64,000 nucleotides of DNA from an uncultured Prevotellaceae bacterium (GCA_900316475.1 ONDA01000023.1:15016-79015), one strand, 5' to 3'; shown: positions 5,201 through 20,632, numbered from the stretch's first letter. Notes: a model not told the origin generated them from the sequence alone. Made by a program: numbers and translations.

Positions 5201-7022
5201 TCAGCACCGGCTGCGGCAGGCGCACCATCTTGCAGTTAGAGGCATCCGGCGTCAGGATGTTCGTCCCCACCGCCCCGATGTACTCCGTCAGGCTCATGAC
5301 CAGCTCCTCGCGAATAGGGTCAATCGCTGGGTTCGTCACCTGCGCAAACTGCTGGCGGAAATAGTTGAACAGCACCTGCGGACGGTCGCTGACGACGGCA
5401 AGCGGTGTGTCGTTACCCATGGCCGCCACCGGCTCCTGCCCCGTCGTGGCCATCGGCACAATCGTCTTGTCAATATCCTCCTGTCCGAAGCCGAAGGTAA
5501 CCAGTTTACGCTGGAGGTCGCTCACAGCGTTCTCTACCTTGCGACCACTTTTCAGCTTCTCCAGCTGTACACGGTTCTCGCTGAGCCACTCACGATACGG
5601 ATGCGCCTTGGCCAGCTTCTCCTTAATTTCGCCGTCGTAGTATATTTTGCCTTCCTGCGTGTCGATGAGCAGAATCTTGCCTGGCTGCAAGCGTCCCTTC
5701 GAGACCACGTCGCCCGGCTCGAAGTCCATCACGCCGACCTCCGATGCCACGACCATCATGCCCTGCTTCGTAATCGTATAGCGCGAGGGGCGCAGACCGT
5801 TCCTGTCGAGCATACCGCCCGCATACCGTCCGTCGCTGAACAGCAGCGCCGCCGGTCCGTCCCATGGTTCCATCAGGATAGAGTGGTACTCATAGAACGC
5901 CTTCAAATCCTCCGAGATGGGGTGGGGCCCTCCGCCAGACACTCGGTAGTCTGGCGGCAATCCCTTGTCGTTGAACGACTCCGGCACCAGTATCGCCATC
6001 GCCTGCGGCAGCGACATGCCGCTCATCATCAGGAACTCAAACACGTTATCCAGGCTTGCACTATCGCTCATCCCCTCCTGCACAATCGGCGAAATCTCTC
6101 TGATGTCGCCCAATGCCTCGCTCGAAAGCACACTCTCGCGCGCCTTCATCCATCCGCGATTGCCGCGAATGGTGTTAATCTCGCCATTATGAGCTAACAA
6201 GCGGAAGGGCTGGGCCAGCGACCACGTGGGGAATGTGTTTGTGCTGAATCGTGAGTGGACCAGCGCCAGTCCGCTTGTCAGGTAGGGATTCGACAAATCC
6301 GGGAAATACCGGCGCAGCTGTCCGCTGGTCAGCATTCCCTTGTAGATGATATTCTTCGTGGAAAGCGAGCAGATGTAGAAAGCCTCAACCCCCAGCAGAC
6401 TCTCCCCCGGCCCCTCCCTGTGAGGGAGGGGAGCAGATACCATTTCCGCTATCCTCTTCTCAATCCTTTTCCTTATTATATATAAAGTGCGCTCAAATAC
6501 CGTCTCTTCTTCGCCAGGAGTGTAATCACTCCCCTCCCTCACAGGGAGGGGTCGGGGGTGGGTCTGCTGGTGGGTCTGCTGAGTCACAAATATCTGCTTA
6601 ATCTCTGGCTCTACCCTCCTTGCCGCCTCGCCCAGCACCTCCGGGCATGTCGGCACCGTGCGCAGATGCATCAGCTGCAGGCCCTCGCGCTCAATCTCCT
6701 CAATCATCACCGACAGGATTTCCTGCTGCGCCTTTTCCTCTTTCGGCAGGAACACCAGGCCCGTGCCGTACTTTCCCTTCTCGGGCACGGGGATGCCCTG
6801 CAACAGAATAAACTCATGGGGAATCTGTAGCATGATGCCTGCGCCGTCGCCCGTCTTGTCGCGGGTCTCGGCTCCTCGGTGCTCCATGTTCTCCAGCACC
6901 TTCAGCGCGTTGTCCACCAGTTCATGACTCTTGCCGCCGTGAATATTCACCACCATGCCTACGCCGCAGGCGTCGCGTTCATATTGTGACTGATAAAGTC
7001 CTTTTGTCTTACTATTTGTCAT
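2271..7022 (-). CDS. gltB: Glutamate synthase large subunit (start reassigned to ATG 7022)
   Basis: ERDACGVG N-terminal Ntn Cys, GAMSFG, IKVAQGAKPGEGGQLPG, CNTNTCPMG; -7 box at 7064-7071 argues against the upstream in-frame start. Confidence 0.98.
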   Translation of the reverse strand: MTNSKTKGLYQSQYERDACGVGMVVNIHGGKSHELVDNALKVLENMEHRGAETRDKTGDGAGIMLQIPHEFILLQGIPVPEKGKYGTGLVFLPKEEKAQQEILSVMIEEIEREGLQLMHLRTVPTCPEVLGEAARRVEPEIKQIFVTQQTHQQTHPRPLPVREGSDYTPGEEETVFERTLYIIRKRIEKRIAEMVSAPLPHREGPGESLLGVEAFYICSLSTKNIIYKGMLTSGQLRRYFPDLSNPYLTSGLALVHSRFSTNTFPTWSLAQPFRLLAHNGEINTIRGNRGWMKARESVLSSEALGDIREISPIVQEGMSDSASLDNVFEFLMMSGMSLPQAMAILVPESFNDKGLPPDYRVSGGGPHPISEDLKAFYEYHSILMEPWDGPAALLFSDGRYAGGMLDRNGLRPSRYTITKQGMMVVASEVGVMDFEPGDVVSKGRLQPGKILLIDTQEGKIYYDGEIKEKLAKAHPYREWLSENRVQLEKLKSGRKVENAVSDLQRKLVTFGFGQEDIDKTIVPMATTGQEPVAAMGNDTPLAVVSDRPQVLFNYFRQQFAQVTNPAIDPIREELVMSLTEYIGAVGTNILTPDASNCKMVRLPQPVLTNTQLDILCNIRYKGFNTKKLSMVVAPPSAPEGATLDKAEEALRAALDKLCKDAEASVDEGVNYIILTDKTIEAPSGAVGGACWFNIPSLLAVSAVHHYLISVGKRVQTALIVESGEIREVMHAALLLGYGASALCPYMTFAILDDLVKRGRIQEEYATAERNYIKAVDKGLKKIMSKMGISTIRSYRGAKIFESIGLSEDLLRRYFGTEVSTIGGIGLKEIARDAIRLQTLPQPLPVREGSGYLANHGQFSWRRDGIKHAWNPETIAKLQLACRTGDYEKFKEWSKLVDEKESPIFLRDFLTFKKVSTPLPHREGQGERSVEDVEPVESIVKHFVTGAMSFGALSIEAHEALALAMNKLGTRSNTGEGGEDNARYHTEVDGVSLSSKTKQIASGRFGVTAEYLVNAEEIQIKVAQGAKPGEGGQLPGFKVNDIIAKTRNAIPGISLISPPPHHDIYSIEDLAQLIFDLKNINPTAAVSVKLVAESGVGTIAAGVAKAKADLIVISGAEGGTGASPASSMRFAGISPEIGLAETQQTLVRNGLRNQVRLQTDGQLKTAKDVIIMAMLGADEFSFGTLPLIVLGCVMMRKCNTNTCPMGVATQNPELRKHFEGRAEYVVNYFTFLAQQVREYLAEIGVHSLKEIIGHTELIEVKSCDNVATNGTAVEKWRSIDFGRLLHKPDTDKALYWDRGAYTKVTGVKDEEIVKAAAKAIESQEEVTLDYAIKNTDRAVGTMLSGIIAKKYGEAGLPDGTIRIKFKGSAGQSFGAFAVKGLDLRLEGETNDYFGKGLSGGRISILPPARRSEEFKAEENIIAGNTGLYGATSGELYVNGIVGERFGVRNSGAIAVIEGAGDHCCEYMTGGRVVVLGKTGRNFAAGMSGGVAYVYDPDHTFDYFCNMDMVELSLVEDSVSRKELLELIRQHYLHTGSALAGRMLDDWHRYIEDFIQVIPIEYKRVLEEEKMARLHEKIADIQRDY
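4241..4514. repeat. Inverted pair of palindromic repeats in frame in gltB (4241-4284, 4471-4514)
   Basis: CCCCTCCC-TGTGA/TCACA-GGGAGGGG stems; peptides VSTPLPHREGQGER and QTLPQPLPVREGSGY. Confidence 0.9.
4955..5128. repeat. Inverted pair of palindromic repeats in frame in gltB (4955-4984, 5099-5128)
   Basis: agccccccctacggcccccgagggggct and agccccctcgggggcagaagggggggct; peptides APSGAVGGA and APPSAPEGAT. Confidence 0.85.
5932..5957. repeat. Perfect 9-bp-stem hairpin in frame in gltB
   Basis: ccgccagac-actcggta-gtctggcgg; peptide GLPPDYRVSGGGPH inside FNDK...PISEDLKAF. Confidence 0.7.
6397..6566. repeat. Inverted pair of palindromic repeats in frame in gltB (6397-6441, 6521-6566)
   Basis: Same CCCCTCCC..GGGAGGGG stem; peptides VSAPLPHREGPGESL and QTHPRPLPVREGSDYT. 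Confidence 0.9.
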
Positions 7023-7063
7023 ATTATCCTTACTTTTTCTTACGTTTTGTCTAATTTTCGATG

Positions 7064-7071
7064 CAAAGGTA
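7064..7071 (-). promoter_or_regulatory. Bacteroidetes sigma-A -7 box for gltB-gltD
   Basis: TACCTTTG on the minus strand matches TAnnTTTG, about 40 nt upstream of the ATG. Confidence 0.75.
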
Positions 7072-7133
7072 ATACTATATGTCTGATTTGCCAAAGCTCT
7101 GATTTCCTTTTTCACCTTCATTTGGCACCCAAC

Positions 7134-7220
7134 TTACATTTTGTAAAGTCCAAGCCCGCGACACGCCCATTTTGCGGTGTCATACGGTGTCTGCGACACG
7201 CCGTAGCTTACACTTTGTCA
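7134..7220. promoter_or_regulatory. Paired candidate operator boxes upstream of gltB (7134-7146, 7208-7220)
   Basis: TTACATTTTGTAA and TTACACTTTGTCA, 74 bp apart; the same layout recurs at three other promoters. Confidence 0.7.
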
Positions 7221-7359
7221 TTTTCAGGCGAATAGTAACGCGACGGAACGACAATTGTTTTTCCAAACTCCATTTTCTTTTATCATAAGCGGAACATTAT
7301 TTGGCGTTTCCTGATTTTTTTTGTTACTTTGCACGCCATAAAGGTGACAACACAAAAAA

Positions 7360-8262
7360 ATGAATACAACCATATTAACCATTACAGGAAGCGACGGCAC
7401 AGGCGACTCCGGTGTGCAGGCAGACATACGGCTCATCTGCGAACTGGGCGGCAAGGCGGCGTCTGCCATCACCTCCATCACAGTGCAGAACACGCTGGGC
7501 ATCCAGGAATTCCACGACCTGCCGGCAGCCGTCGTCTACCAGCAAGTGGAAGCCATCATCAACGACCTGCAACCGCAGGTTATCAAGATAGGACTGCTGA
7601 GACACACGGAAGTGGTAGGGATGCTGGCCGACGTATTGCGCAAATACAAGCCGCGACACATCATCTATGTCCCCGTCCTGAAGTCCACAAAGGGCGAACG
7701 GCTGGTGTCGCCAAGTGTCTACGAGGCCATCGAACGCCTTCTCCTGCCGCTGTGTACCATCGTTCTGGCGCCCTCCGACCTGCCCGTAGGCCCGCGCCGC
7801 CACGGTCAGGCCAACAAGCTGGCTTCCGCCTTAGCCTATTACCTGAGTCTCGGCGAGACAGAGGCCGACGCCATGCTTCACGCCCAGACCTACCTGAAGA
7901 CCCTGCCTGCCGACTATGCCGACGGGAACAGCAGGAGCGAGGAACTCTACAACCAGTTCCTGACCGCCGTAGAACGCAACTATAGCCACTATGCCGACGT
8001 GGCGTTTTACGCCGAACAGCTTAACGTCAGTGCCAAGTACTTAGGACAAGTGACGCGACGCATAGCCAACCGTTCGCCGAAAGCCATTATCGACGACCGT
8101 ATCATCACAGAAATCGTGGCATTGCTCACCTCCACCAACCGTCCGCTGAAGGACATCGCCCAGCGTCTCGGTTTCTCCTCGCAGGCTCATCTCTCGCGCT
8201 TCTTCAAGAAGCACAAGGGAGTATCACCAACAGAATACCAACACAACAACAAACAATCATAA
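7360..8262 (+). CDS. ThiD/PdxK-like kinase domain fused to an AraC-family HTH; probable regulator
   Basis: N-term [32 protein letters not shown] (ThiD-like); C-term [37 protein letters not shown] (AraC). Confidence 0.8.
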
Positions 8263-8266
8263 ACAC

Positions 8267-9139
8267 ATGAACGAAAGAACATTGCTGAACCGCCAGTTGG
8301 CTCAGATGCTGAAGGGCGGTGTTATCATGGACGTGACGACTCCCGAACAGGCCCGGATTGCCGAGGCTGCCGGTGCCTGTGCCGTCATGGCCCTCGAACG
8401 CATCCCTGCCGACATCCGTGCTGCAGGTGGTGTGAGTCGTATGAGTGACCCGAAGATGATTCGCGGCATTCAGGAGGCTGTCTCCATCCCCGTCATGGCC
8501 AAGTGCCGCATTGGTCACATTGCCGAGGCGCAGATCCTGCAGGCCATCGAGATTGACTACATCGACGAGAGCGAGGTACTCTCGCCCGCCGACAACATCT
8601 ATCATATCGACAAGACGAAGTTCGACGTGCCCTTTGTCTGTGGCGCCAAGAACCTGGGTGAGGCCTTGCGCCGTATTGCCGAAGGTGCCACGATGATCCG
8701 CACCAAGGGTGAGCCCGGTACGGGCGATGTTGTTCAGGCCGTGAGTCACATGCGTCTGATGCAGAGCGAGATTCGCCGACTGACGAGCATGAGCGACGAC
8801 GAGCTCTTCGAGGCCGCCAAACAACTGCAGGCGCCCTACGAACTGGTGAAGTTCGTACATGACGAAGGCAAACTCCCCGTGGTCAACTTTGCGGCTGGCG
8901 GTGTGGCTACGCCTGCCGATGCTGCCATGATGATGCAGCTCGGTGCCGAGGGCGTGTTTGTGGGCAGTGGCATCTTCAAGAGCGGCAACCCCGCCAAGCG
9001 TGCTGCCGCCATCGTTCAGGCTGTGACCAACTACCAGGATGCCAAACTCCTGGCCGAACTCTCGGAAGACCTTGGCGAGGCGATGGTAGGTATCAATGAG
9101 CACGAGATAGAGCTGTTAATGGCCGAACGAGGGAAATGA
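8267..9139 (+). CDS. pdxS: Pyridoxal 5'-phosphate synthase lyase subunit
   Basis: [42 protein letters not shown]. Confidence 0.97.
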
Positions 9140-9684
9140 GGATAGCAGTATTGGCCCTGCAAGGGGCGTTTGTTGAGCACGAGCAGATGTTGCAGAAGCT
9201 CGGCGTGGAGACGGTGGAGATACGTCAGATGCGCGACTGGCAGCAGCCAAAGGACGGGTTGGTATTGCCCGGCGGTGAGAGTACCGTGCAGATGCGCCTG
9301 CTGAAGGAGCTGGGACTCTTCGACCCTATCCGCGAGGCTATCCTCGGCGGGATGCCCGTCCTCGGCACTTGTGCCGGCATGATTCTCCTTTCCGAACGTC
9401 GCCTCGGCACGATGGCCATCGAGGTGCGCCGCAATGCCTACGGTCGTCAGTTGGGCAGCTTTCATACCGTTGGCAGCGTCGAGGGTATCGGCAATGATGT
9501 TCCCATGACCTTCATCCGTGCCCCCTATATCGAACGTGTGCTGAGCGAGAAGGTCGAAGTGCTTTCCACCGTCGATGGCCATATCGTCGCTGCCCGACAG
9601 GGTCATCAGCTCGCCACCGCCTTCCATCCGGAGCTGGACGGAGACCGGCGCGTACACCAGATGTTTGTCGAAATGGCCCGTTAG
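9136..9684 (+). CDS. pdxT: PLP synthase glutaminase subunit
   Basis: LALQGAF, PGGEST, GTCAG, FIRAP, FHPEL; ATGA overlap with pdxS. Confidence 0.96.
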
Positions 9685-9771
9685 TGACTATTTGTTACAG
9701 TCTGACCGCTTTTTGAGCCAAAAAGTAAGCAAAGTGTAAAGAAACGAATTTGTTTTCTTTACACTTTGTTA
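9685..9771. promoter_or_regulatory. Paired candidate operator boxes upstream of glnK-amtB (9685-9697, 9759-9771)
   Basis: TGACTATTTGTTA and TTACACTTTGTTA, 74 bp apart, ending 63 bp before the -7 box. Confidence 0.65.
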
Positions 9772-9833
9772 TTTATTTTAATATTTTGAAAACATATCGA
9801 CATTGGATGCTTGCAGTTTCTGACAAAATGTCG

Positions 9834-9841
9834 TACTTTTG
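9834..9841 (+). promoter_or_regulatory. -7 promoter box for glnK-amtB
   Basis: TACTTTTG matches TAnnTTTG. Confidence 0.7.
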
Positions 9842-9892
9842 CACCCGAAAGCTTTCAAGATGACATTATATTAATTAAAAGAGGTAAAAAGT

Positions 9893-10240
9893 ATGAAAAG
9901 GATTGAAGCAATTATCCGCAAGACCAAGTTCGAGGAGGTCAAGGAGGCACTGCTCGCGTCGGACATCGACTGGTTTGAATACCATAACGTTCACGGTATC
10001 GGCCAGAGCCGACAGGAACGTATCTACCGTGGCGTGCAGTACTCTACGGATGTGATAGAGCGTGTGGCGCTGACCATCGTCTGCCGCGACGCCTTGGTGG
10101 AACCGACGGTGAAAGTGATACTCGACATGGCACACACAGGCGAGATAGGCGACGGTCGCATCTTCGTGAGCGACATGATAGACACATGGAGCATCCGCAC
10201 AGGCGAGAATGGCGACACCGTACTGAGAGATAAGAAGTAA
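9893..10240 (+). CDS. glnK: P-II nitrogen regulatory protein
   Basis: MKRIEAIIR, YRGVQY T-loop, TGEIGDGRIFVS..IRTGE; directly upstream of amtB. Confidence 0.93.
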   Translation: MKRIEAIIRKTKFEEVKEALLASDIDWFEYHNVHGIGQSRQERIYRGVQYSTDVIERVALTIVCRDALVEPTVKVILDMAHTGEIGDGRIFVSDMIDTWSIRTGENGDTVLRDKK

Positions 10241-10246
10241 GGGGTG

Positions 10247-10356
10247 CTCCCCTGCCCCCTCCAAGGAGGGGAGAGTCAAATAACACAAACACAAAAATCA
10301 CAACCCCATACCTCCGTTCGGGTTCCCCCTCCTCGGGAGGGGGTAAGGGGAGGCTT
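10247..10356. repeat. Intergenic inverted pair of the same palindromic repeat family (10247-10277, 10321-10356)
   Basis: ctcccctgccccctccaaggagggg and ccccctcctcgggagggggtaaggggaggctt. Confidence 0.85.
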
Positions 10357-10362
10357 ATACTT

Positions 10363-11616
10363 ATGAACGAAATAGGATTATCACTCGATACCGTATGGAT
10401 GCTGCTGGCAGCGATGTTAGTTTTCTGGATGCAGCCTGGCTTTGCCCTGTGTGAGGCTGGTTTTACACGAAGTAAGAATACGGTCAACATTCTGATGAAG
10501 AACTTTGTCGACTTCATGTTCGGCTCGCTCTTGTTCTTCTTCCTCGGCTTCGGCTTCATGTTCGGCAGCGAAGGTGCCGGTTTCATCGGTGCTCCCAACT
10601 GGGGCGACCTCTCATTCTACAAGGGCGACCTGCCCGTAGAGGGTTTCTTGATTTTCGAGACGGTCTTCTGCGCCACCTCTGCCACCATCGTCAGCGGAGC
10701 CATGGCTGAGCGCACGAAGTTCTCGATGTACCTGATTTACAGTGCCGTCATCTCGTTGTTTATCTATCCCATTGAAGGTCATTGGACGTGGGGCGGCGGC
10801 TGGCTCTGCAACGATGCTGCCGACGGCTTTATGATGTCTACCTTCGGCGACGTGTTTCACGACTTTGCCGGTTCGGCTGTCGTTCACTCCGTAGGTGGTG
10901 TGCTGGCACTGATTGGCGCTTTGGCACTGGGTCCCCGTGTTGGCAAGTATGCCAAGGACGGCAAGAGTCGTGCTATTCCCGGCCACAACCTGGCCATGGC
11001 CGCCCTGGGCGTGTTCATCCTCTGGTTAGGATGGTTTGGCTTCAACCCCGGTTCTCAGTTGGCTGCCAGTGGCGAGGTCAACCGTGTGGCCATCTCTCAT
11101 GTGTTCCTGACCACCAACCTTGCTGCTGTGGCAGGCGGTGTGGCCACGATGTTCCTCACCTACATCAAGTACGGCAAGCCGTCGCTCTCACTCACCCTGA
11201 ACGGCGTGTTGGCAGGTCTTGTGGGCATTACCGCCGGTTGCGACCTCGTATCGCCCCTTGGTGCCGTCGTCATCGGTCTGGTCTGCGGAACCGTTCTGGT
11301 TTACGCCATCGAGTTTATCGACCACAAGCTCCACATCGACGACCCTGTAGGTGCCAGTAGCGTACACGGCGTCTGCGGTATCCTGGGCACCCTCATGACC
11401 GGTCTGCTGTCCACATCCAACGGTGCCTTCTATGGCGGCGGTTGGGGATTCTTCGGAGCCGAGTGCTTCGGTATCCTTGTCATCGACGCCTGGGCTGCTG
11501 TCTGCGGTGTGATACTGTTCTACGGCATCAAGCACATTCACGGCTTACGCGTAGACAAGCGTATCGAGGAGGAAGGTCTCGACATCTATGAGCACGGAGA
11601 GGCGTGCTATAACTAA
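10363..11616 (+). CDS. amtB: Ammonium transporter
   Basis: DTVWMLLAAMLVFWMQPGFA, DFAGSAVVH, GWFGFN, DDPVGASSVHG. Confidence 0.97.
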   Translation: MNEIGLSLDTVWMLLAAMLVFWMQPGFALCEAGFTRSKNTVNILMKNFVDFMFGSLLFFFLGFGFMFGSEGAGFIGAPNWGDLSFYKGDLPVEGFLIFETVFCATSATIVSGAMAERTKFSMYLIYSAVISLFIYPIEGHWTWGGGWLCNDAADGFMMSTFGDVFHDFAGSAVVHSVGGVLALIGALALGPRVGKYAKDGKSRAIPGHNLAMAALGVFILWLGWFGFNPGSQLAASGEVNRVAISHVFLTTNLAAVAGGVATMFLTYIKYGKPSLSLTLNGVLAGLVGITAGCDLVSPLGAVVIGLVCGTVLVYAIEFIDHKLHIDDPVGASSVHGVCGILGTLMTGLLSTSNGAFYGGGWGFFGAECFGILVIDAWAAVCGVILFYGIKHIHGLRVDKRIEEEGLDIYEHGEACYN

Positions 11617-11640
11617 TCATAAATAATAAGGTAAAAGGTT

Positions 11641-12348
11641 ATGAAAAAGATTGTATTATTGGCCATAGGTCTGGTTGCGCTCGCAACCACCTATGCACAG
11701 GAGACAGTAGAAACCACTATCAGTAGCGACGTGGTGAGCAGTTACATCTGGCGTGGCCAGGATTTGGGCAGTGCAGCCATACAGCCCACCTTGGGCGTAG
11801 GCTATAAGGGCCTTTCGTTGTCGGCCTGGGGCAGCTACGGCATCGCCGATCCCGCCGACGCCAAGGAGTTCGACCTGACGCTTGCCTACACCCTTGACGG
11901 TCTGAATATCGGCATCACCGACTACTGGTTCAACGCTGGCGGTCTCGACCCTGACGGCAGATACTTCAAGTATGACGCCCACGGCACCAACCACGTCTTC
12001 GAAGCGAACGTCGGCTACGATTTCGGCTTTGCCAGCGTGCAGTGGTACACCAACTTCACTGGTAACGACGGTATCAACAAGGATGGCAAGCGGGCCTACA
12101 GCAGTTACGCCGAGATAGCCGTTCCCTTTAAGCTTGCCACCGTCGACTGGACGGCCAGAGCCGGTGCCGTGCCCTATTGCACAACGTTTTACGGCACAAC
12201 AGGCTTCGCCGTAACCCATCTCTCGCTGCAAGCGACAAAAGACATCAAAGTGACGGACGCATTCTCGATACCCGTCTTCGGGCAGGTCATAGCCAATCCC
12301 TGTACCCAGAAAGCCTACCTGGTTCTCGGCCTTACGCTGCGGCCATGA
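11641..12348 (+). CDS. Outer-membrane beta-barrel protein (TorF-like putative porin)
   Basis: Signal peptide, SSYIWRGQD..AIQP, EFDLTLAY alternating strands, terminal amphipathic strand. Confidence 0.7.
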   Translation: MKKIVLLAIGLVALATTYAQETVETTISSDVVSSYIWRGQDLGSAAIQPTLGVGYKGLSLSAWGSYGIADPADAKEFDLTLAYTLDGLNIGITDYWFNAGGLDPDGRYFKYDAHGTNHVFEANVGYDFGFASVQWYTNFTGNDGINKDGKRAYSSYAEIAVPFKLATVDWTARAGAVPYCTTFYGTTGFAVTHLSLQATKDIKVTDAFSIPVFGQVIANPCTQKAYLVLGLTLRP

Positions 12349-12362
12349 TCTTATCCAGGTTT

Positions 12363-12401
12363 CCCTCTCTTCTGTCGTAACAGGCGGAAGAGGGGGCTTT
12401 C
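12363..12401 (+). terminator. Possible intrinsic terminator after the porin gene
   Basis: ctcttctgtc..ggcggaagag stem followed by a T-rich tail. Confidence 0.45.
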
Positions 12402-12446
12402 TTCTGTTCTGCATCTGGCAAGAGTGCCTCCGGCAAAGTCCTTGCC

Positions 12447-12533
12447 TTACAAAATGCAAGGGAAACGACCGTTTTCAAGGCAAAACGAAAGGTTGCGCCC
12501 ACCCTTGCGCCTATAGATTCTTACACTTTGACA
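12447..12533. promoter_or_regulatory. Paired candidate operator boxes upstream of pyrG-purF (12447-12459, 12521-12533)
   Basis: TTACAAAATGCAA and TTACACTTTGACA, 74 bp apart, ending 64 bp before the -7 box TAATTTTG (12597-12604). Confidence 0.7.
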
Positions 12534-12629
12534 ACGAAGCGCGTTTTTAACAATCAAAAACAGGAGGCTATGATTGGCTGTCAGCGGGATTATCCGTAAT
12601 TTTGCAGTCCATAGAATAGAAATCGTTTT

Positions 12630-14351
12630 ATGGAAACAAAGTACATCTTCGTCACGGGCGGCGTCGTTTCCTCGTTGGGAAAAGGCATCATCTCCGCCAG
12701 CATCGGCAAACTGCTGCAGGCACGTGGCTTCAAAATCACCATCAAGAAGTTCGACCCGTACATCAACATCGACCCGGGCACACTGAACCCCTACGAGCAC
12801 GGCGAATGCTACGTGACGGAGGACAGTTTTGAAACCGACCTCGACTTAGGGCACTACGAGCGCTTTACGGGTATACGTACCACACGCCACAACAGCATCA
12901 CCACAGGCCGCATCTATAAGGCAGTCATCGACCGCGAGCGCCACGGCGACTATCTGGGCAAGACCATCCAGGTGGTGCCGCACATCACGGACGAGATAAA
13001 AAAGAGGATATTGGACACCCCGGGGGCAGTAGGAGGAGCTTTGGGGACTTCATCTTTCGTCATTTGCGAAATCGGCGGCACCATCGGCGACATCGAGAGT
13101 GCGCCGTTCATGGAGGCTATCCGCCAGCTGCGCTGGGAACTGGGGCGCAATGCCGTGTGTGTACACCTAACCTACGTGCCCTATCTGAAAGCCGCCGACG
13201 AGTTAAAGACAAAGCCCACGCAACATTCGGTCAAGGAATTGCAGAGCATGGGCATCCAGCCTGACATCCTCGTACTACGCACGGAACGTCATCTGGACGA
13301 AAGCCTGCGCAGGAAAGTGGCGTCGTTCTGCAATGTCGACCTGGATTGTGTCGTACAGAGCGAGGACTTGCCGAGTATCTATGAGGTGCCGGTGAGTATG
13401 CACCAGCAGGGGCTTGACACGGCCATATTAAGAAAGGCGGGAGCCTCCCCAAGCCCCTCCAAAGGAGGGGATGTTGAGACACCTGATTTCGCGGCTTGGA
13501 CTGCCTGGCTTGCCTTCCTCGACAAGCAGCGACACGCTACCCGTGAGTTGCACATCGGACTGGTGGGTAAATACGACCTGCAGGATGCCTACAAGAGCAT
13601 CCGCGAGAGCCTGAGTCTGGCTGGCGTCTATAACGACGTGAAGACGAAGATTCATTTCGTCAACAGCGAGGCGTTGACGGCGGAAAACGTCGCTACACAA
13701 TTGGCGGGCATGGCGGGCATCGTCATCTGTCCTGGTTTCGGACAGCGGGGCATCGAGGGGAAAATCATCGCCGCCGAATACACACGCACACACGACATCC
13801 CCACCTTCGGCATCTGCTTAGGCATGCAGATGATGGTCATTGAGTTTGCACGGAACGTGTTAGGCTATCCGGATGCGACGAGCAGCGAGATGGTGACCTT
13901 CCCCAAAGCCTCCCCAAGCCCCTCCGAAGGAGGGGGTGTGGCTCCCCACTGTGTGATAGACATGATGGAAGAACAGAAGAGTATTACGCAGATGGGTGGC
14001 ACGATGCGGTTGGGGGCATACGACTGCCAATTAGTGGAAGGCAGCAAAGCGTATGAAGCATACCTGCAGTCGGAGCAATCTACCCCCCTCGCTCACAGAG
14101 AGGAGCCGGGGGAGAGTCTCTTTGTCAAGGAACGCCATCGCCATCGCTATGAGTTCAACAATCAATATAAGGAGGAATACGAGCAGGCCGGCATGAAGTG
14201 CGTAGGCATCAACCCGACCGCCAACCTCGTCGAGATTGTCGAGATACCCGACAAGCGTTGGTACATCGGCACACAGTTCCATCCTGAGTATTCGTCAACG
14301 GTGCTGCACCCGCACCCACTGTTTATGTCGTTCATAAAGGCCTGCATCTGA
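12630..14351 (+). CDS. pyrG: CTP synthase
   Basis: FVTGGVVSSLGKG, KFDPYINIDPGTLNPYEHGE, CLGMQ, RHRHRYE, QFHPE. Confidence 0.98.
   Translation: METKYIFVTGGVVSSLGKGIISASIGKLLQARGFKITIKKFDPYINIDPGTLNPYEHGECYVTEDSFETDLDLGHYERFTGIRTTRHNSITTGRIYKAVIDRERHGDYLGKTIQVVPHITDEIKKRILDTPGAVGGALGTSSFVICEIGGTIGDIESAPFMEAIRQLRWELGRNAVCVHLTYVPYLKAADELKTKPTQHSVKELQSMGIQPDILVLRTERHLDESLRRKVASFCNVDLDCVVQSEDLPSIYEVPVSMHQQGLDTAILRKAGASPSPSKGGDVETPDFAAWTAWLAFLDKQRHATRELHIGLVGKYDLQDAYKSIRESLSLAGVYNDVKTKIHFVNSEALTAENVATQLAGMAGIVICPGFGQRGIEGKIIAAEYTRTHDIPTFGICLGMQMMVIEFARNVLGYPDATSSEMVTFPKASPSPSEGGGVAPHCVIDMMEEQKSITQMGGTMRLGAYDCQLVEGSKAYEAYLQSEQSTPLAHREEPGESLFVKERHRHRYEFNNQYKEEYEQAGMKCVGINPTANLVEIVEIPDKRWYIGTQFHPEYSSTVLHPHPLFMSFIKACI
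13017..14119. repeat. Four palindromic repeat copies in frame in pyrG (13017-13040, 13441-13473, 13906-13936, 14077-14119)
   Basis: Peptides TPGAVGGA, ASPSPSKGGDV, ASPSPSEGGGV, STPLAHREEPGESL match the gltB and intergenic copies. Confidence 0.8.
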
Positions 14352-14352
14352 C

Positions 14353-16146
14353 ATGGAACAACTCAAGCATGAGTGTGGCGTGGCGATGATTCGCCTGCTG
14401 AAACCGCTGGACTACTACGGACAGAAGTACGGCACCAACCGCTACGGGCTGAACAAACTCTACCTGATGATGGAGAAACAACACAACCGCGGTCAGGAGG
14501 GAGCAGGCATCGCCTCGGTGAGCCTGGACAAAGAGCCTGGCCGGGAGTATATGTTCCGAGAGAAGGCCGAAGGTAAGGATGCCATCACCGAAATCTTCAG
14601 AAGGGTGGCCTCAACAATACCCTCATCATGTCATCAGGCACCCTCGCCTTCGGAGGGACTTGGCGAGGCGTGGAGCACTTGCCAACTCCTGATGGGGCAC
14701 CTGCGCTACTCAACGACGGGCAAGAGCGGACTGCAATACGTACATCCTTTCCTGCGCCGCAACAACTGGCGGGCGAAGAACCTCTGTCTGTGCGGCAACT
14801 TCAACATGACCAACATCGACGAGGTCTTCCGCTTCCTGACAGCGCAGGGACAGTCGCCGCGTATCTATGGCGACTCGTACATCACGCTGGAACTGATGGG
14901 GCACCGCCTGGACCGCGAGGTCGAAAGGCTCTACAACGAGGCGATGGGCAAAGGACTGGAGGGACTCGACATCACGCACTATATAGACGAGCATGTGGAG
15001 ATGGCCAATGTGCTACGCACCACGATGCAGCACTACGACGGCGGTTACGTCATGTGTGGACTGACGGGCTCGGGCGAGATGTTCTCTGTACGCGACCCCT
15101 GGGGTATCCGTCCGGCATTCTACTATCGCGACGACGAGATAATAGCCGTCGCCAGCGAGCGCCCTGTGCTGCAGACCACGTTCGACATCCAGGCTGAGGA
15201 TGTGCATGAGCTGATGCCTGGTCAGGCACTCATCGTTCATCAGAACGGCACGAGCCAGCTGGAACAGATAATGCCTGCACAGCGGTTCAGTGCCTGTTCC
15301 TTCGAGCGCATCTACTTCAGTCGCGGCTCCGACCGTGACATCTATCAGGAGCGCAAACGGCTGGGCGAACAACTGACGCCAGCCATCCTCAAGGCTATTG
15401 ACAACGATGTTGCCAACACCGTGTTTTCATATATCCCCAACACGGCCGAGGTGGCCTACTATGGCATGACCGACGGTTTCCGACGGCAGGGCTACAGCGT
15501 GCGCACGGAGAAGGTGGTGTGGAAAGACATCAAACTGCGCACCTTCATTGCCGACAACTCAGAGCGCAACGACCTGGCGGCTCATGTCTACGACATCAGC
15601 TACGGTTCGCTGCGACCCTACGAGGACAACCTCGTCATCATCGACGACTCCATCGTGCGCGGAACGACACTCAAGGAGAGCATCTTCAAGATTCTGGACC
15701 GGCTGCACCCCAAGAAGATTGTCATGGTCAGCTCGTCGCCCCAGATTCGCTACCCCGACTACTACGGCATCGACATGGCGCGCCTGGAGGAGTTCTGCGC
15801 CTTCCGCGCCACGATGGCACTGATTGAGGAGCGTGGTATGTGGCAACTGGTCAACGACACCTATCTGGCCTGCAAACATAACCTTCAAACAGAGAATCAT
15901 GTCCGTGCGCTCTACGAGCCTTTCACCGTCGAGGAAATCAACAGGAAGATTGTGGAGATGCTGCGCCCGAAGGGCATGAAGGCACCTGTCGAACTGGTGT
16001 TCCAGAGTATCGAGGGTCTCCACGAGGCGTGCCCTAACCACCCTGGCGACTGGTATTTTACCGGTCACTATCCTACGCCTGGCGGCACACGGCTCTGTAA
16101 CGCTGCCTTTGTGAACTACATTGACAACAAACAGAAGAAACGGTAA
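14353..16146 (+). CDS. purF: Amidophosphoribosyltransferase (class II glutamine amidotransferase plus PRTase)
   Basis: KHECG, QHNRGQEGAG, GHLRYST, VRDPWGIRP, IIDDSIVRGTT. Confidence 0.88.
   Translation: MEQLKHECGVAMIRLLKPLDYYGQKYGTNRYGLNKLYLMMEKQHNRGQEGAGIASVSLDKEPGREYMFREKAEGKDAITEIFRRVASTIPSSCHQAPSPSEGLGEAWSTCQLLMGHLRYSTTGKSGLQYVHPFLRRNNWRAKNLCLCGNFNMTNIDEVFRFLTAQGQSPRIYGDSYITLELMGHRLDREVERLYNEAMGKGLEGLDITHYIDEHVEMANVLRTTMQHYDGGYVMCGLTGSGEMFSVRDPWGIRPAFYYRDDEIIAVASERPVLQTTFDIQAEDVHELMPGQALIVHQNGTSQLEQIMPAQRFSACSFERIYFSRGSDRDIYQERKRLGEQLTPAILKAIDNDVANTVFSYIPNTAEVAYYGMTDGFRRQGYSVRTEKVVWKDIKLRTFIADNSERNDLAAHVYDISYGSLRPYEDNLVIIDDSIVRGTTLKESIFKILDRLHPKKIVMVSSSPQIRYPDYYGIDMARLEEFCAFRATMALIEERGMWQLVNDTYLACKHNLQTENHVRALYEPFTVEEINRKIVEMLRPKGMKAPVELVFQSIEGLHEACPNHPGDWYFTGHYPTPGGTRLCNAAFVNYIDNKQKKR
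14638..14669. repeat. Degenerate palindromic repeat copy in frame in purF
   Basis: ccctcgccttcggagggacttggcgaggc; peptide APSPSEGLGEA. Confidence 0.65.
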
Positions 16147-16152
16147 TAATCT

Positions 16153-17085
16153 TGAACTTTCCCACCCCTTTCCTTTTTAATCCCATTTCTTTTCAACCAC
16201 TAATTGCTAATTGAACGAATTATTACTAATTCAACTTTCTCAAGTTTTATAACGACCACGAATTTAACGAATTAAACGAATTTTCTATGCAGGATGTTAT
16301 GATGCATCTAAGATGCAACGAATTTCACGAATTGGCTAGCGCCGGCAAGAAATCGCTTGCGATTTCATTCGTGAAATTCGTTTAAAATAACAACGCGCAG
16401 CCAAATTCGTGAAATTCGTGAAATTCGTGGTAAAAAAAATACTTACGAAACTTGAATTACTAATAAGTTGCGAATTTTCGCCGCAAGTGCCGATAGCCTG
16501 CGCGTAGCAAATTAGTGAAATCTTTGTCGTCTGTCGGCTCAAAATCTTTTAAATCTTCAAATCTTTGTTCATTACAAAAAGAATGGCCGTCATTTGTTTC
16601 GGAAAACAATTAGAAAAAATTAGAATAATCTGTTCCAACAATTAGAAATAAAGCTGTCTCGACAAATTAGAAATAATAAGCCCTGTCAGGGCATTTGTTG
16701 GGAAACGAATTGCCGTAATAATCATAATTTTTGCCGTAATTTTCATAATAATAATTACGGAGCACTGCGCGTAGCAAAATTAGTGAAATTAGTGCAATTA
16801 GTGGTTTATTATAATGTCATCTTTGTCGTCTGTCGGCTCAAAATCTTTTAAATCTTCAAATCTTTGTTCATTATTAAATTATTCAAGTTTCGTAAGTATT
16901 TTTTTACCACGAATTTCACGAATTTCACGAATTTGGCTGCGCGTTGTTAATTTAAACGAATTTCACGAATGAAATCGGAAAATTCGTTTAATTCGTTAAA
17001 TTCGTAGTCGTTATAAAACTTGAGAAAGTTGAATTAAATTAGTGAAATTAGTGGTTCTTAAAAGGTTTTAGGGGTGGGGAACTTG
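16153..17085. repeat. AT-rich non-coding fold-back region with long inverted arms and internal direct repeats
   Basis: 16227-16285 vs 16978-17036 inverted (1 mismatch in 59); 16360-16457 vs 16881-16977 inverted (1 mismatch, 1 indel); 16521-16574 = 16820-16873 direct; 9-bp AAATTCGTG repeats. Confidence 0.9.
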
Positions 17086-17120
17086 AGTAGTAATCTTTGC
17101 AGAATAATCTAAAATACCAA

Positions 17121-18035
17121 TCATAGTCCGTTTATCGTCTCAACTGTCAGCCCTGTGTATTTGGCTATCAGTTCTGCGGGCATGCCGTCAGCCTTCATAC
17201 GGCGGGCTGACTCTAAGGCCTTTTCATGCTCGCCCTCGGCACGACCCTTCTTCAGGCCCTCGGCACGACCCTCGGCGCGTCCCTTTGCCAAACCTTTCTC
17301 CATACCCTTCGCTGCGGCAGTGCGGAAAGCACCGTCGAGGTCGTAATAGGCCTTCTCGCTCTCGAAATACTTGGCGTAGTCCTCCTTCGACAGGTTGGCC
17401 GTCTCCGCCACGTCGAAGAACTTCTTGAAGATGCGCTCCTGCAGGGCGGCAGGGCGCTCCAGCAGGCGGGGCAGGTTCTTCAGCGCGTAGAGCCACTTGT
17501 CGAGCAGCGACTCCAGCTCGGCCTCCGTCTTGCGGAACTTGGGCATCTCGAGATAGATGTAAGTCAGGTTGTCGTAGAAGACCTCTTTTTTGTTGATATC
17601 CATCAGCTTCACCACGTGGTGGAAGTACTCCTCGTCGTCCTTGTCCTCGTCGAACACGAAGTCGAGGATGCCGATGGTGTAGACGGCCTTCAGGCCGAAG
17701 CGCCAGCGACCCCGCTCGCCCTGTGAGCGGATGGGGAACGAAGAGTAGTAGACCGAGCGGTCCTTGAAGTACTGCTGGTCGGCCTTCTGCATCTCGATGA
17801 TGATTTTCTCGCCGTGCTCGTTCTCGGCATACACGTCGAAGACGGCGCGGCGGTCGTCCTTCGTGTCGCCGAGCTGCTCGGACGGTATCAGCGTGAGCGA
17901 CTTGATGACCTCCTTACCACGCAGCAGCTCGTTGACGAGCGCCAGCGTGAACTCCTTGTTAGGCTCGGTGCCGAAGAGGTACTTGAAGCCGTAGTCGGTA
18001 AAGGGATTGATGTATCTGCCTGCTATCTCTTCCAT
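17121..18035 (-). CDS. Rpn family recombination-promoting nuclease / PD-(D/E)XK putative transposase
   Basis: YINPFTDYGFKYLFG, FDVYAENEHGEKIIIEMQ, YIYLEMPKF, C-terminal GRAEG repeats; start reassigned to 18035. Confidence 0.9.
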   Translation of the reverse strand: MEEIAGRYINPFTDYGFKYLFGTEPNKEFTLALVNELLRGKEVIKSLTLIPSEQLGDTKDDRRAVFDVYAENEHGEKIIIEMQKADQQYFKDRSVYYSSFPIRSQGERGRWRFGLKAVYTIGILDFVFDEDKDDEEYFHHVVKLMDINKKEVFYDNLTYIYLEMPKFRKTEAELESLLDKWLYALKNLPRLLERPAALQERIFKKFFDVAETANLSKEDYAKYFESEKAYYDLDGAFRTAAAKGMEKGLAKGRAEGRAEGLKKGRAEGEHEKALESARRMKADGMPAELIAKYTGLTVETINGL

Positions 18036-18190
18036 AAGTGATGTACTGAATTTCTGCTGCAAAAATAGCATTTTTCCCTGACACTGCCAAGGATTTTGCA
18101 GAATAAAATCTACTTGGCATAGCGTATTCTCCATGAATTGCCCAGGCTTTGTCACTATAAACCGAAGCGGGAATAGCAGAAAAAAAAGTA

Positions 18191-18591
18191 GGTGACACCT
18201 CTTACACCTGGCACTTAACTACTTGAAAATCAAGGGCCGTTCCGAGCAGCTTAGTCGCACCTGTGGTCACACCTATAGTCGCACCTGTGGTCGCTCCAAG
18301 GCGCTCGGCGACGCAAGGAGACGCATTCTTTGCAAGCAAAGCGTCGCAAGCGCCGAGCGGCCAAGAAAAAGGCAAGAATAGTGGCAGACCGTGAAACATT
18401 TACGAGAGGCCGTGAGATTTTTCTGAGAGGCCGTGAAATTTTTGCGAACGGCCGTGAAATTTTCGGCTTTGCCGTGAAACATTTTGGGAGTGGTTGGTGC
18501 GCCACTTGGTGTGGGTATTGGTGTGGGTATTGGTGTGGGCAAGTTCCTCGCTAACCTGCTGATAATCAGGCTTGGTGTAAGAGGTGTCACC
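18191..18591. mobile_element. MITE-like element with perfect 18-bp terminal inverted repeats
   Basis: GGTGACACCTCTTACACC (18191-18208) and its exact reverse complement (18574-18591); internal 12-bp and 21-bp tandem arrays; no credible ORF. Confidence 0.6.
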
Positions 18592-18680
18592 AAAATGCAG
18601 TCTTGCCTGTATACGCGCGCGAGAGAAGAGGCATTTTAGGGTGTGCGTAAGCCAAAGAGGTAGCATAGACGTTAGCCAAA

Positions 18681-18767
18681 TGACGCTTTGTAACAGAACT
18701 GACAGTTTTCCCGTCAAAGAGAAAGCATAATGACACTTATCGGCCATCATAATATTACAAAATGTCA
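18681..18767. promoter_or_regulatory. Paired candidate operator boxes upstream of asnB (18681-18693, 18755-18767)
   Basis: TGACGCTTTGTAA and TTACAAAATGTCA, 74 bp apart, ending 63 bp before the -7 box TACCTTTG (18830-18837). Confidence 0.7.
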
Positions 18768-18889
18768 GCAAACTGAAGTTTTAACAAACAAAAGAGTCAA
18801 GTTCCGAGGTCTCTCTCTCTTGTTTTGCTTACCTTTGCTGCCTGTTTATTGCAAGTACTAAGTAAATACTGATAATTGTTGATATAACT

Positions 18890-20628
18890 ATGTGTGGAAT
18901 AGTAGCAATATTAAACGTCAAGGAGCAGACACAGGCTCTGCGTGATAAAGCATTGAAGATGAGTCAGAAGATTCGCCATCGCGGACCCGACTGGAGCGGC
19001 ATCTACTGTGGCGGCAGTGCTATCCTTGCCCACGAACGGCTGAGCATCGTCGACCCGGAAAGCGGAGGGCAACCTTTGTTTTCGCCAGACAAGAAACAGG
19101 TCTTGGCTGTCAACGGCGAGATATACAACCACCAGGAGATTCGCCGCCGCTATGCCGGCCAGTACGAATTCCAGACTGGCAGCGACTGCGAGGTCATTCT
19201 GGCGTTGTACAGAAGCCTCACCCCCAGCCTCTCTCCGAAAGGCGAGGGGAGTGATTACACTCATGAGCAGATTTGTGAGATGCTGGAACAGTTGAGTGGA
19301 ATTTTTGCGTTTGTCTTGTACGACGAAGAGACTGACGTGTTCCTGATTGCCCGCGACCCCATCGGTGTGATTCCGCTTTATATCGGTTACGATGCCGATG
19401 GCAAGGTGTATGTGGCCTCCGAACTGAAAGCGCTCGAAGGACAGTGCGAGCACTACGAGCCGTTCCTGCCCGGTCATTACTATTGGAGTGCCGACCCAGG
19501 CATGAAGCGCTACTACAAGCGCGACTGGTTCAACTATGATGCCGTGAAGGATAATCCTGCTTCCGTAGAGGCTGTTCATGATGCCTTGGAGGATGCCGTC
19601 AGGCGCCAGCTGATGTCCGACGTGCCTTATGGCGTACTGCTCTCTGGCGGACTCGACTCCAGCGTCATCTCCGCCATCGCCGAGAAATACAGTGAGATGC
19701 GTATCGAGGACAACTCGAAAACCAAAGCCTACTGGCCCCGCCTGCACTCGTTTGCCGTGGGACTGAAAGGTGCACCCGACCTGGCCAAGGCAAAACTGGT
19801 GGCCGACCATATCGGCACCGTGCATCACGAAATCAACTACACCATCCAGGAAGGCCTCGATGCCATCCGCGACGTCATCTACTTCATCGAGACCTACGAC
19901 GTGACAACCGTCCGAGCCTCAACGCCGATGTATCTGCTGGCACGTGTCATCAAGTCGATGGGCATCAAGATGGTGCTCTCGGGTGAGGGTGCCGACGAGA
20001 TCTTCGGTGGCTATCTCTATTTCCACAAGGCGCCGACGGCCAAGGACTTCCACGAAGAGACCGTCCGCAAGCTCTCCAAGCTCTATATGTACGACTGTCT
20101 GCGCGCCAACAAGAGTCTGTCGGCCTGGGGCGTCGAGGGTCGTGTGCCGTTCCTCGACAAAGAGTTCCTCGACGTTGCCATGCGGACGAACCCCAAGGCC
20201 AAGATGTGTGGCCCCAGCTCCTCTCCAAAGGACGAGGGGAGTTTCATCATTGAGAAGAAGATTGTGCGCGAGGCCTTTGCCGACCTGCTACCCGACGAGG
20301 TGGCCTGGCGACAGAAAGAGCAGTTCAGCGACGGTGTGGGCTACTCATGGATTGACACGCTGAAACAGATGACCGCAGAAGCCGTCAGCGACGAGCAGAT
20401 GGCGCACGCCGCAGAGCGATTCCCCATCAACACGCCGAAGAACAAGGAGGAATACTACTACCGCAGCATCTTTGCCGAGCACTTCCCCAGCGACAGCGCG
20501 GCCAAGAGCGTGCCCTCAGAGGCCAGCGTGGCTTGCAGCACGGCCATCGCCCTGGAATGGGATGCCGCCTTCAAGGGCGTGAACGACCCCAGCGGCCGCG
20601 CCGTCAAGGGCGTTCACGAGCAGGCTTA

Positions 20629-20632
<4 letters not shown>
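18890..20632 (+). CDS. asnB: Asparagine synthetase B (glutamine-hydrolysing)
   Basis: MCGI, RHRGPDW, HERLSIVD, NGEIYN, LLSGGLDSS, SGEGADEIFGGY. Confidence 0.98.
19213..20245. repeat. Two palindromic repeat copies in frame in asnB (19213-19260, 20211-20245)
   Basis: Peptides SLTPSLSPKGEGSDYT and GPSSSPKDEGSF; the first shares GAGGGGAGTGATTACAC with the gltB 6521 copy. Confidence 0.8.

Follow-up and report, generated by a model that had tools for sequence, protein, structure and literature searches.

A helically phased operator lattice at nitrogen-assimilation promoters of a Prevotellaceae bacterium and a candidate Lrp/AsnC-type regulator

The octameric Escherichia coli protein AsnC, a member of the Lrp/AsnC (feast/famine) family, activates an asparagine-synthesis gene at low asparagine and represses its own gene. 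Its relative Lrp, as known from gltBDF and ilvIH, activates glutamate synthase (GOGAT) from several phased upstream sites, wraps DNA, and follows a global feast/famine logic. Here, we analyze a 64,000-nucleotide stretch of DNA from an uncultured Prevotellaceae bacterium (GCA_900316475.1, ONDA01000023.1:15016-79015; "the window," with positions counted from its first nucleotide), in which the promoters of gltB, glnK, pyrG, and asnB carry 13-bp palindromic boxes on a helically phased lattice, and we discuss a protein of the same family as the candidate that binds them.

Operators of the family have a common form. SELEX experiments with four members, together with a co-crystal, gave abcdeWWWe'd'c'b'a' (W, A or T) with a preferred AAT/ATT center (PMC2715240), and such sites lie on one helical face, two to three turns apart, and the DNA wraps around dimers that interact or around an octamer (PMC2995911). 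The boxes described below are 5-3-5 palindromes as well, TTACA-WWW-TGTAA with an A/T center, and the best copies in the genome read TTACA[AAT/ATT]TGTAA. The archaeal FFRPs (feast/famine regulatory proteins) FL11, Ss-LrpB, LysM, and Sa-Lrp share with the present system the 13-bp site form and the pattern of residue-to-base contacts; their dimers become octamers when an effector binds, and they wrap DNA (PMC2715240, PMC2995911). Sa-Lrp is described as glutamine responsive (PMC3584215). They differ from it in that the host here is bacterial, the half-site is TTACA, and an Arg at residue 35 is not among the characterized examples.

As with E. coli AsnC, asnB and asnA carry boxes here and the candidate regulator has one in its own promoter. 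The contact residues of the two proteins differ, however (S-P-E-T-x-H in AsnC, S-R-A-A-x-H in the candidate), so that the DNA site should differ too, and the regulon here is far wider, taking in GOGAT and type III glutamine synthetase (GSIII), P-II/AmtB, CTP synthase, and possibly pyridoxal phosphate (PLP) synthase, with a lattice that is registered on the promoter. As with E. coli Lrp, gltB is flanked by phased upstream sites, whereas the Lrp consensus is of the AGAAT-TTT-ATTCT type and the fixed distance to the Bacteroidota -7 element is specific to the present system. By analogy, the system may work like Lrp at gltBDF/ilvIH, AsnC at asnA, and the archaeal FFRPs.

Paired boxes at four nitrogen promoters

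A preliminary description of the window had placed two 13-bp boxes, starting exactly 74 bp apart, upstream of each of gltB, glnK, pyrG, and asnB. Direct reading of the four promoter regions located all eight boxes where it had put them (Table 1), and in each pair the two starts lie exactly 74 bp from one another. The distances given from the end of the proximal box to the start of the TAnnTTTG -7 element also held, at 63 bp for gltB, glnK, and asnB and 64 bp for pyrG; all four elements are perfect Bacteroidota TAnnTTTG. The consensus that had been proposed, T(T/G)ACA-n3-TGT(A/C/T)A, describes half of the boxes, as the other four (9685, 12447, 12521, and 18681) each carry one mismatch. With positions expressed as box start relative to the first T of TAnnTTTG, the strong sites common to all four promoters are limited to the upstream -149/-75 pair (-150/-76 at pyrG). 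Read by eye, the four promoters all lack a TTTG -33 element at the distance where one would be expected.

To separate signal from chance, the whole 3.29-Mb assembly was scanned. The strict consensus occurs at 22 sites, 5 of them in the window and 4 in the 11.7-kb cluster, and 12 of the 16 window sites with no more than one mismatch lie between 7009 and 18755. One perfect-consensus box, TGACAAATTGTCA (58501-58513), falls within the open reading frame (ORF) C60:73323-74183, remote from the nitrogen cluster, and is probably a chance coding-region match. A symmetrized position weight matrix (PWM) gave 203 sites genome-wide at a score of at least 11; among these, the 74-bp spacing occurred four times, always in this cluster, and every other spacing from 13 to 200 bp was seen once. 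Because the PWM had been trained on the boxes of the preliminary description, the matrix was rebuilt four times with one promoter left out each time. These matrices recovered all four held-out pairs as 74-bp pairs and no 74-bp pair elsewhere in the genome, with other spacings averaging 0 to 0.16 pairs. With the matrix built without gltB, the two gltB boxes took ranks 5 and 6 among 3.29 million positions. A chance origin of the paired boxes is excluded. The layout had not been seen at the trpS or metG promoters, and the genome-wide scan for boxes at 74-bp spacing, along the lines of a check that had been suggested, extends this: no further promoter in the genome has such a pair, which is thus confined to the four cluster promoters and not equally common at unrelated ones.

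NtcA, GlnR/TnrA, and NtrC/sigma-54 fill the same role in other bacteria, namely the joint control of glnK-amtB, GOGAT/glutamine synthetase, and amidotransferase genes by nitrogen status. The preliminary description had set the box apart from the GlnR/TnrA and NtcA sites, and a scan of the four promoters agrees, with no site in common. The best matches to NtcA GTA-N8-TAC (near -41.5) have one to two mismatches and unrelated positions, and the boxes differ from NtcA sites in their opposite half-site orientation and N3 spacer. No GlnR/TnrA TGTNA-N7-TNACA site is shared by the four promoters, the lone one-mismatch match at glnK being a by-product of box 9685. Sigma-54 sites (TGG-N9-TGC at -24/-12; TGGCAC-N5-TTGCW) were not found in gene orientation at the four promoters, nor was a shared GG-N10-GC. 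A sigma-54 near-match on the opposite strand, TGGCACCCAACTTACA (TGGCAC-N5-TTAC; 7123-7138, +), is one base off, overlaps box 7134, and was dismissed since it is not kept in relatives; it is probably due to chance. An Rfam scan of 6500-19500 at E <= 0.1 returned no match, so a riboswitch or leader does not explain the co-regulation; a sigma-70-type promoter scan is uninformative in Bacteroidota. A literature search, which omitted most subscription journals and curated regulon databases, found no description of the motif or of a Prevotella or Bacteroides nitrogen regulator, in line with the earlier statement that no described regulator was known for it.

Operator lattice in relatives and the ammonium stimulon

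Orthologous clusters were compared among metagenome-assembled genomes (MAGs) of rumen Prevotella/Prevotellaceae (loci labeled L, genomes labeled G). Phylogenetic footprinting, as had been proposed, showed that the boxes upstream of glnK, gltB, and pyrG are kept but the DNA separating them is not, and box positions are kept across dozens of species. Pairwise box distances in the relatives peak at 31 bp (10 pairs), 43 bp (5), 74 bp (6), 93/94 bp (5), and 125/126 bp (4), and 35 of 47 distances lie no more than 1 bp from a whole number of 10.5-bp turns. In many species (L002, L003 at pyrG, L047, L060, L061, and L096), a middle box splits the 74-bp interval into 31+43 or 43+31; in this genome, a middle box occurs at glnK only, where it is weak (9727).

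The boxes of 27 distinct Prevotella glnK promoters keep to a small number of set positions: +19 most frequently (14/27), then -107 and -75 (12/27 each), -149 and -138 (9/27 each), and -118, -44, and -13 (4/27 each). The series -138, -107, -75, -44, -13, +19 has a period of 31.4 bp, and -149 lies one turn off it. The lattice is also fixed in the gltB promoters of at least 11 species. These fixed positions identify the pair in the window as lattice positions -149 and -75. The "fixed 74 bp" of the preliminary description is therefore a real spacing but not the unit, which is a promoter-registered step of about 31 bp. In locus L003, gltB and glnK diverge directly from one another, and their two promoters share this pair of boxes symmetrically, each box standing 63 bp from one -7 element. 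In the genome under study, the filled positions are -149, -107, -75, -44 (weak), -13, and +19 (weak) at glnK and -149, -75, -13 (weak), +19, and +50 at gltB; conservation of the gltB +50 box may in part be that of coding sequence.

Outside Prevotella/Prevotellaceae, glnK boxes were missing in almost all of the loci retrieved from Bacteroides, Parabacteroides, Tannerella, Alistipes, and flavobacteria, with the exception of a Bacteroidales MAG locus (L122) that has five. Operon structure differs in those groups, and absence there is accordingly weak evidence. We consider it very probable that the boxes form a genuine nitrogen-regulon operator lattice. The earlier view of a Prevotella nitrogen regulon with in-phase operators is borne out by the helical phasing, by the conservation, and by the restriction to nitrogen operons.

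The core of the gene set listed below responds strongly to ammonium availability in chemostats of Prevotella ruminicola 23, being induced under ammonium limitation; amtB, glnK, gltBD, and asnB show a 40- to 70-fold nitrogen response, and neither regulator nor operator was named (PMC5552732). For ammonium versus peptides, SI Table 3 of that study lists fold inductions of 47 for amt, 46.5 for PRU_1977, 43 for glnK, 26 for gltB, 23 for dapF, 22.5 for GSIII, 22 for gltD, 15 for asnB, 13 for PRU_1974, 6.9 for pyrG, 6.8 for PRU_1973 (class-II amidotransferase), 6.3 for PRU_2766 (phosphomethylpyrimidine kinase/AraC family regulator), 4.6 for pdxS, and 4.4 for the SNO glutamine amidotransferase (PMC5552732). 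By gene name and product description, all units of the window between 2271 and 20632, a transposase-like insert excepted, have counterparts in this stimulon, including a fusion gene-pdxS-pdxT unit. Elsewhere in the genome, high-scoring boxes precede htrA and metK, and those at asnA, serC, gdhA, an XRE-helix-turn-helix (HTH)/cupin regulator gene, and a DEAD-box helicase gene (Table 1) may mark further members of the regulon.

Candidate regulator, mechanism, and rival explanations

No regulator for the boxes lies within the window, where the preliminary description could identify none, and we can now name a candidate on another contig. The assembly holds two Lrp/AsnC members, C29:14200-14658 and C26:5565-6029, both of which match PF13404 (HTH_AsnC) and PF01037 (AsnC_trans_reg). 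The closest solved relatives of the 152-amino-acid C29 protein are E. coli AsnC (2CG4, E = 3e-30, full-length alignment) and FL11, to which it aligns without gaps through the DNA-binding domain. Its contact residues in FL11 numbering are F24, S34, R35, A36, A37, and H39. In the terms of Table 4 of PMC2715240, S34/A37 read T at position a, A36 reads T at b as in LysM, H39 reads A at c as in FL11, and F24 reads A at e as in FL10; by analogy, R35 would contact position d and should select a G:C pair. The half-site predicted on this basis, T-T-A-(C/G)-A, would match the observed T-(T/G)-A-C-A, and the prediction is independent of how the boxes were found. FSRAAH is invariant in 24 of 24 close orthologues (73-100% identical; 23 same-genus genomes and G025 of a sister family), and more distant homologues have Gly at residue 35. 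In the C29 gene's own promoter, TACTTTTGC-TGACAAATTGTAA, a top-scoring box immediately follows the -7 element, and the box stands at the same position in seven orthologues, this genome included. The sole Lrp/AsnC type present in every genome with arrays is the C29 type. Just 3' of the regulator gene, C29:14853-16448 appears by eye to encode a class-I glutamine amidotransferase/gamma-glutamyl hydrolase-like domain fused to a membrane-dipeptidase-like one, and might serve to scavenge nitrogen in connection with the regulator.

The site form, the phasing with its modal spacing of 31 bp, the presence of a family regulator in the genome, and contact residues that are compatible by analogy all point to the family. 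An Lrp/AsnC protein is the likely occupant of the lattice, and the C29-type AsnC-like protein is, with somewhat less assurance, the favored one. For the full reading, in which a multimeric Lrp/AsnC regulator, most likely the C29 protein, binds the boxes as a phased, wrapped array, we estimate a probability of roughly 0.6. The agreement of the regulon with the P. ruminicola stimulon and the strong boxes ahead of asnA, serC, and gdhA also speak for it.

Several observations weigh against this reading. The PWM was trained on the boxes of the preliminary description, a circularity of which the leave-one-out scans and the genomes of relatives are independent. The residue-to-base code comes from archaeal proteins, and the Arg35-G contact at d would be an extrapolation of it. 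The own-promoter box of the C29 gene is degenerate or different in about 17 other orthologues. Same-genus genomes that lack amtB or gltB have C29-type genes as well, so whether the gene is there or not is no discriminating sign. At pyrG and asnB, the upstream pair stands by itself with no recognizable middle or core sites, and a wrapped octamer is therefore not demonstrated at these two promoters. When co-variation of residue 35 with the box was examined outside the genus, glnK was preceded by another gene and the gltB upstream regions gave only scattered TTATA/TTACA hybrids.

We infer the binding protein, the effector, and the sign of control as follows. Each C29-type dimer would bind one 13-bp TTACA-WWW-TGTAA site, and the dimers of one assembly would contact same-face sites separated by three turns (31 bp) or four (43 bp; 74 = 31 + 43), wrapping the DNA. 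Occupancy of -149/-75 would stimulate transcription when an amino-acid effector, possibly Asn or Gln, is scarce; with amino nitrogen in good supply, the assembly carrying the effector would extend over -13/+19 and shut the promoter, most strongly and with the best conservation at glnK-amtB. If transcription begins about 12 nt after the start of the -7 element, the center of the -75 box lies near -81 from the start site, and the +19 site of glnK would overlap the early transcribed region. The shared upstream pair, the missing -33 element, and the -81 center together point to activation from upstream. A dual mode, as is typical of the family, would account for the sites over the core promoter of glnK-amtB, which also shows the largest fold changes in P. 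ruminicola. Repression on peptides fits an amino-acid effector.

The preliminary description had modeled an "in-phase, looping or wrapping activator." Its pure form, in which a protein of whatever family activates from two fixed upstream sites and the core-promoter and +19 boxes are incidental, agrees with pyrG and asnB, with the lack of a -33 element in all four promoters, and with the -81 center, a classical upstream-activator position. Yet +19 is the commonest position at glnK and -13 recurs there, gltB has boxes at +19 and +50 as well, and the box of the candidate regulator's own gene overlaps its start site. We thus regard a pure activator as rather unlikely and favor the dual mode; the phasing upholds the in-phase part of that model, and wrapping is its best reading. 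A related question is whether real operators are bound by another family, be it the XRE-HTH/cupin protein (C42:27840-28400) or an uncharacterized Bacteroidota-specific factor, with phasing due to dimer-dimer looping. The box TGTCAAATTGTAA just before the XRE-cupin gene and the poor conservation of the AsnC-like gene's own box beyond close relatives would suit such a factor, but W3-centered 5-3-5 palindromes in 31-bp-step arrays are an Lrp/AsnC signature and the half-site predicted from the AsnC-like contact residues matches, which leaves this explanation unlikely.

Within the family, the Lrp-like C26:5565-6029 protein or a third paralogue, 47% identical to the C29 type and present in many relatives, might bind instead, and the F-S-G-A-A-H contacts of the latter could tolerate TTAnA-type sites. 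The contact residues of C26 (T24 T34 A35 T36 P37 F39), however, resemble those of E. coli Lrp and do not predict TTACA, and G005 has strong arrays but no C26-type gene; arrays also occur in G000, G003, G015, and G016, none of which has the 47% paralogue. Binding by either is very unlikely. The pairs might also be non-regulatory, as AT-rich palindromes due to chance, arms of terminators, or leftovers of duplicated promoter modules: the motif is AT-rich and hence favored in intergenic DNA, and box 9759 forms the 3' arm in a strong hairpin resembling a pdxT terminator (9729-9769). This is effectively refuted by the leave-one-out scans and the spacing and lattice analyses, since the scans exclude chance, dozens of species keep the positions but not the sequence between them, and the other seven boxes lie outside hairpins.

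Gene neighborhood and meaning for Prevotella

The gene products assigned in the preliminary description were confirmed by NCBIfam, apart from "PurF," a class-II amidotransferase whose match to that family is distant (139.8 bits; cut-off, 350). Genes and boxes are listed in Table 1; gene calls beyond the window come from a simple ORF caller, and the assembly is 91% complete.

Table 1. Genes, boxes, and -7 elements of the nitrogen cluster, with boxes elsewhere in the genome (window positions unless a contig is named)
Feature	Position	Strand	Sequence	Remarks
gltD	720-2189	-		NCBIfam
gltB	2271-7022	-		NCBIfam; first gene of its operon
gltB +50 box	7009-7021		ATGACAAA..GTAA	Score 16.1; overlaps gltB start codon (7022-7020); ATGACAAA..GTAA likewise in relatives
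gltB +19 box, weaker	7040-7052	-	AGACAAAACGTAA	Score 9.4; minus-strand reading; +19 also in L046 and L061
gltB -7 box	7064-7071	-	TACCTTTG	Same element in gltB promoters of relatives
gltB -75 box, proximal	7134-7146		TTACATTTTGTAA	Matrix score 18.9; kept in relatives
gltB -149 box, distal	7208-7220		TTACACTTTGTCA	Matrix score 18.1; position kept in relatives
AraC-HTH/Phos_pyr_kin fusion	7360-8262	+		300 amino acids; NCBIfam
pdxS	8267-9139	+		NCBIfam
pdxT	9136-9684	+		NCBIfam
glnK -149 box	9685-9697		TGACTATTTGTTA	
glnK -107 middle box, weak	9727-9739		AAGCAAAGTGTAA	Score 8.6; also 5' arm of hairpin
glnK -75 box	9759-9771		TTACACTTTGTTA	
glnK -13 box	9821-9833		TGACAAAATGTCG	Score 11.7; directly before -7 box
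glnK -7 box	9834-9841	+	TACTTTTG	
glnK +19 box, degenerate	9853-9865		TTTCAAGATGACA	Score 7.1
glnK (P-II)	9893-10240	+		NCBIfam
amtB	10363-11616	+		NCBIfam
235-amino-acid protein	11641-12348	+		Putative PRU_1977 counterpart, from cluster position
pyrG -150 box	12447-12459		TTACAAAATGCAA	
pyrG -76 box	12521-12533		TTACACTTTGACA	Same position in relative locus L003
pyrG -7 box	12597-12604	+	TAATTTTG	
pyrG	12630-14351	+		NCBIfam
Class-II glutamine amidotransferase, distantly purF-like	14353-16146	+		Product description is that of PRU_1973
Rpn-family recombination-promoting nuclease/transposase-like gene	17121-18155	-		
asnB -149 box	18681-18693		TGACGCTTTGTAA	
asnB -75 box	18755-18767		TTACAAAATGTCA	
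asnB -7 box	18830-18837	+	TACCTTTG	
asnB	18890-20632	+		NCBIfam
asnA, two boxes 78 bp apart	C35:28488 and C35:28566			High-scoring, upstream
serC box	C43:52408			High-scoring, upstream
gdhA (one copy) box	C33:7030			High-scoring; 20 bp after -7 start
XRE-HTH/cupin regulator box	C42:27825		TGTCAAATTGTAA	15 nt before gene (C42:27840-28400)
DEAD-box helicase box	C31:12694		TTACAAATTGTAA	Best-scoring box in genome

The gltB operon runs gltB-gltD-dapF-aminotransferase-glnN (GSIII) and extends past the start of the window. Beyond box 7208, the plus-strand gene is unrelated to gltB: it is the AraC-HTH/Phos_pyr_kin fusion, followed by pdxS and pdxT. This operon, divergent from gltB beside boxes 7134/7208, may be a fifth regulated unit, although the sequence likely to be its -7 element, TTACTTTG at 7324, is not a perfect match and box 7208 sits about 2 bp off the lattice position. 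The fusion carries half a Phos_pyr_kin (ThiD/PdxK-like) domain directly 5' of the PLP synthase genes, and its product resembles a regulator that senses vitamin B6. A perfect 10-bp direct repeat, GCGACACGCC (7158-7167 and 7193-7202, 35 bp apart), lies between the two gltB boxes and may be an operator for the adjoining AraC-type regulator. AraC proteins typically bind direct repeats, not 13-bp palindromes. The fusion gene was considered as the source of the regulator of the boxes and rejected, as L003 and L013 share the same two boxes with directly divergent gltB and glnK and do not have this gene. From relatives in which gltB and glnK are directly divergent, the fusion-pdxS-pdxT block was apparently inserted between them.

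Just 3' of pdxT, a terminator-like hairpin (9729-9769, -21.5 kcal/mol, z = -5.4) is followed by a T-rich run; its 5' and 3' arms are glnK boxes 9727 and 9759, so terminator and operators overlap. Another terminator-like hairpin (12363-12396) lies upstream of the pyrG promoter. Farther downstream, about 1 kb without a long ORF (16150-17120) and the Rpn-family gene part the class-II amidotransferase from asnB. In L004 and L013, the amidotransferase adjoins asnB, and asnB has no boxes of its own; here, asnB has the full -149/-75 module.

In the rumen and in many human guts, Prevotella are dominant, and the nitrogen economy of these habitats is to a large extent set by how they assimilate ammonium. 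From the analysis come a precise cis-element with its promoter geometry, a regulon in agreement with a measured stimulon, and a candidate protein with a predicted recognition code, and with these a testable candidate for the nitrogen regulator of Prevotella. As a class of mechanism, phased Lrp/AsnC arrays are already well known. We tentatively propose, as a reading with somewhat less than even odds, that an AsnC-type protein may be the master nitrogen regulator of Prevotella, reading Asn/Gln status via a lattice of about 31.4 bp locked to the -7 element, activating from -149/-75 and repressing by spreading over -13/+19. If true, no global circuit of nitrogen control would have been defined in Bacteroidota before this one, in a role held elsewhere by NtrC, GlnR, TnrA, and NtcA.

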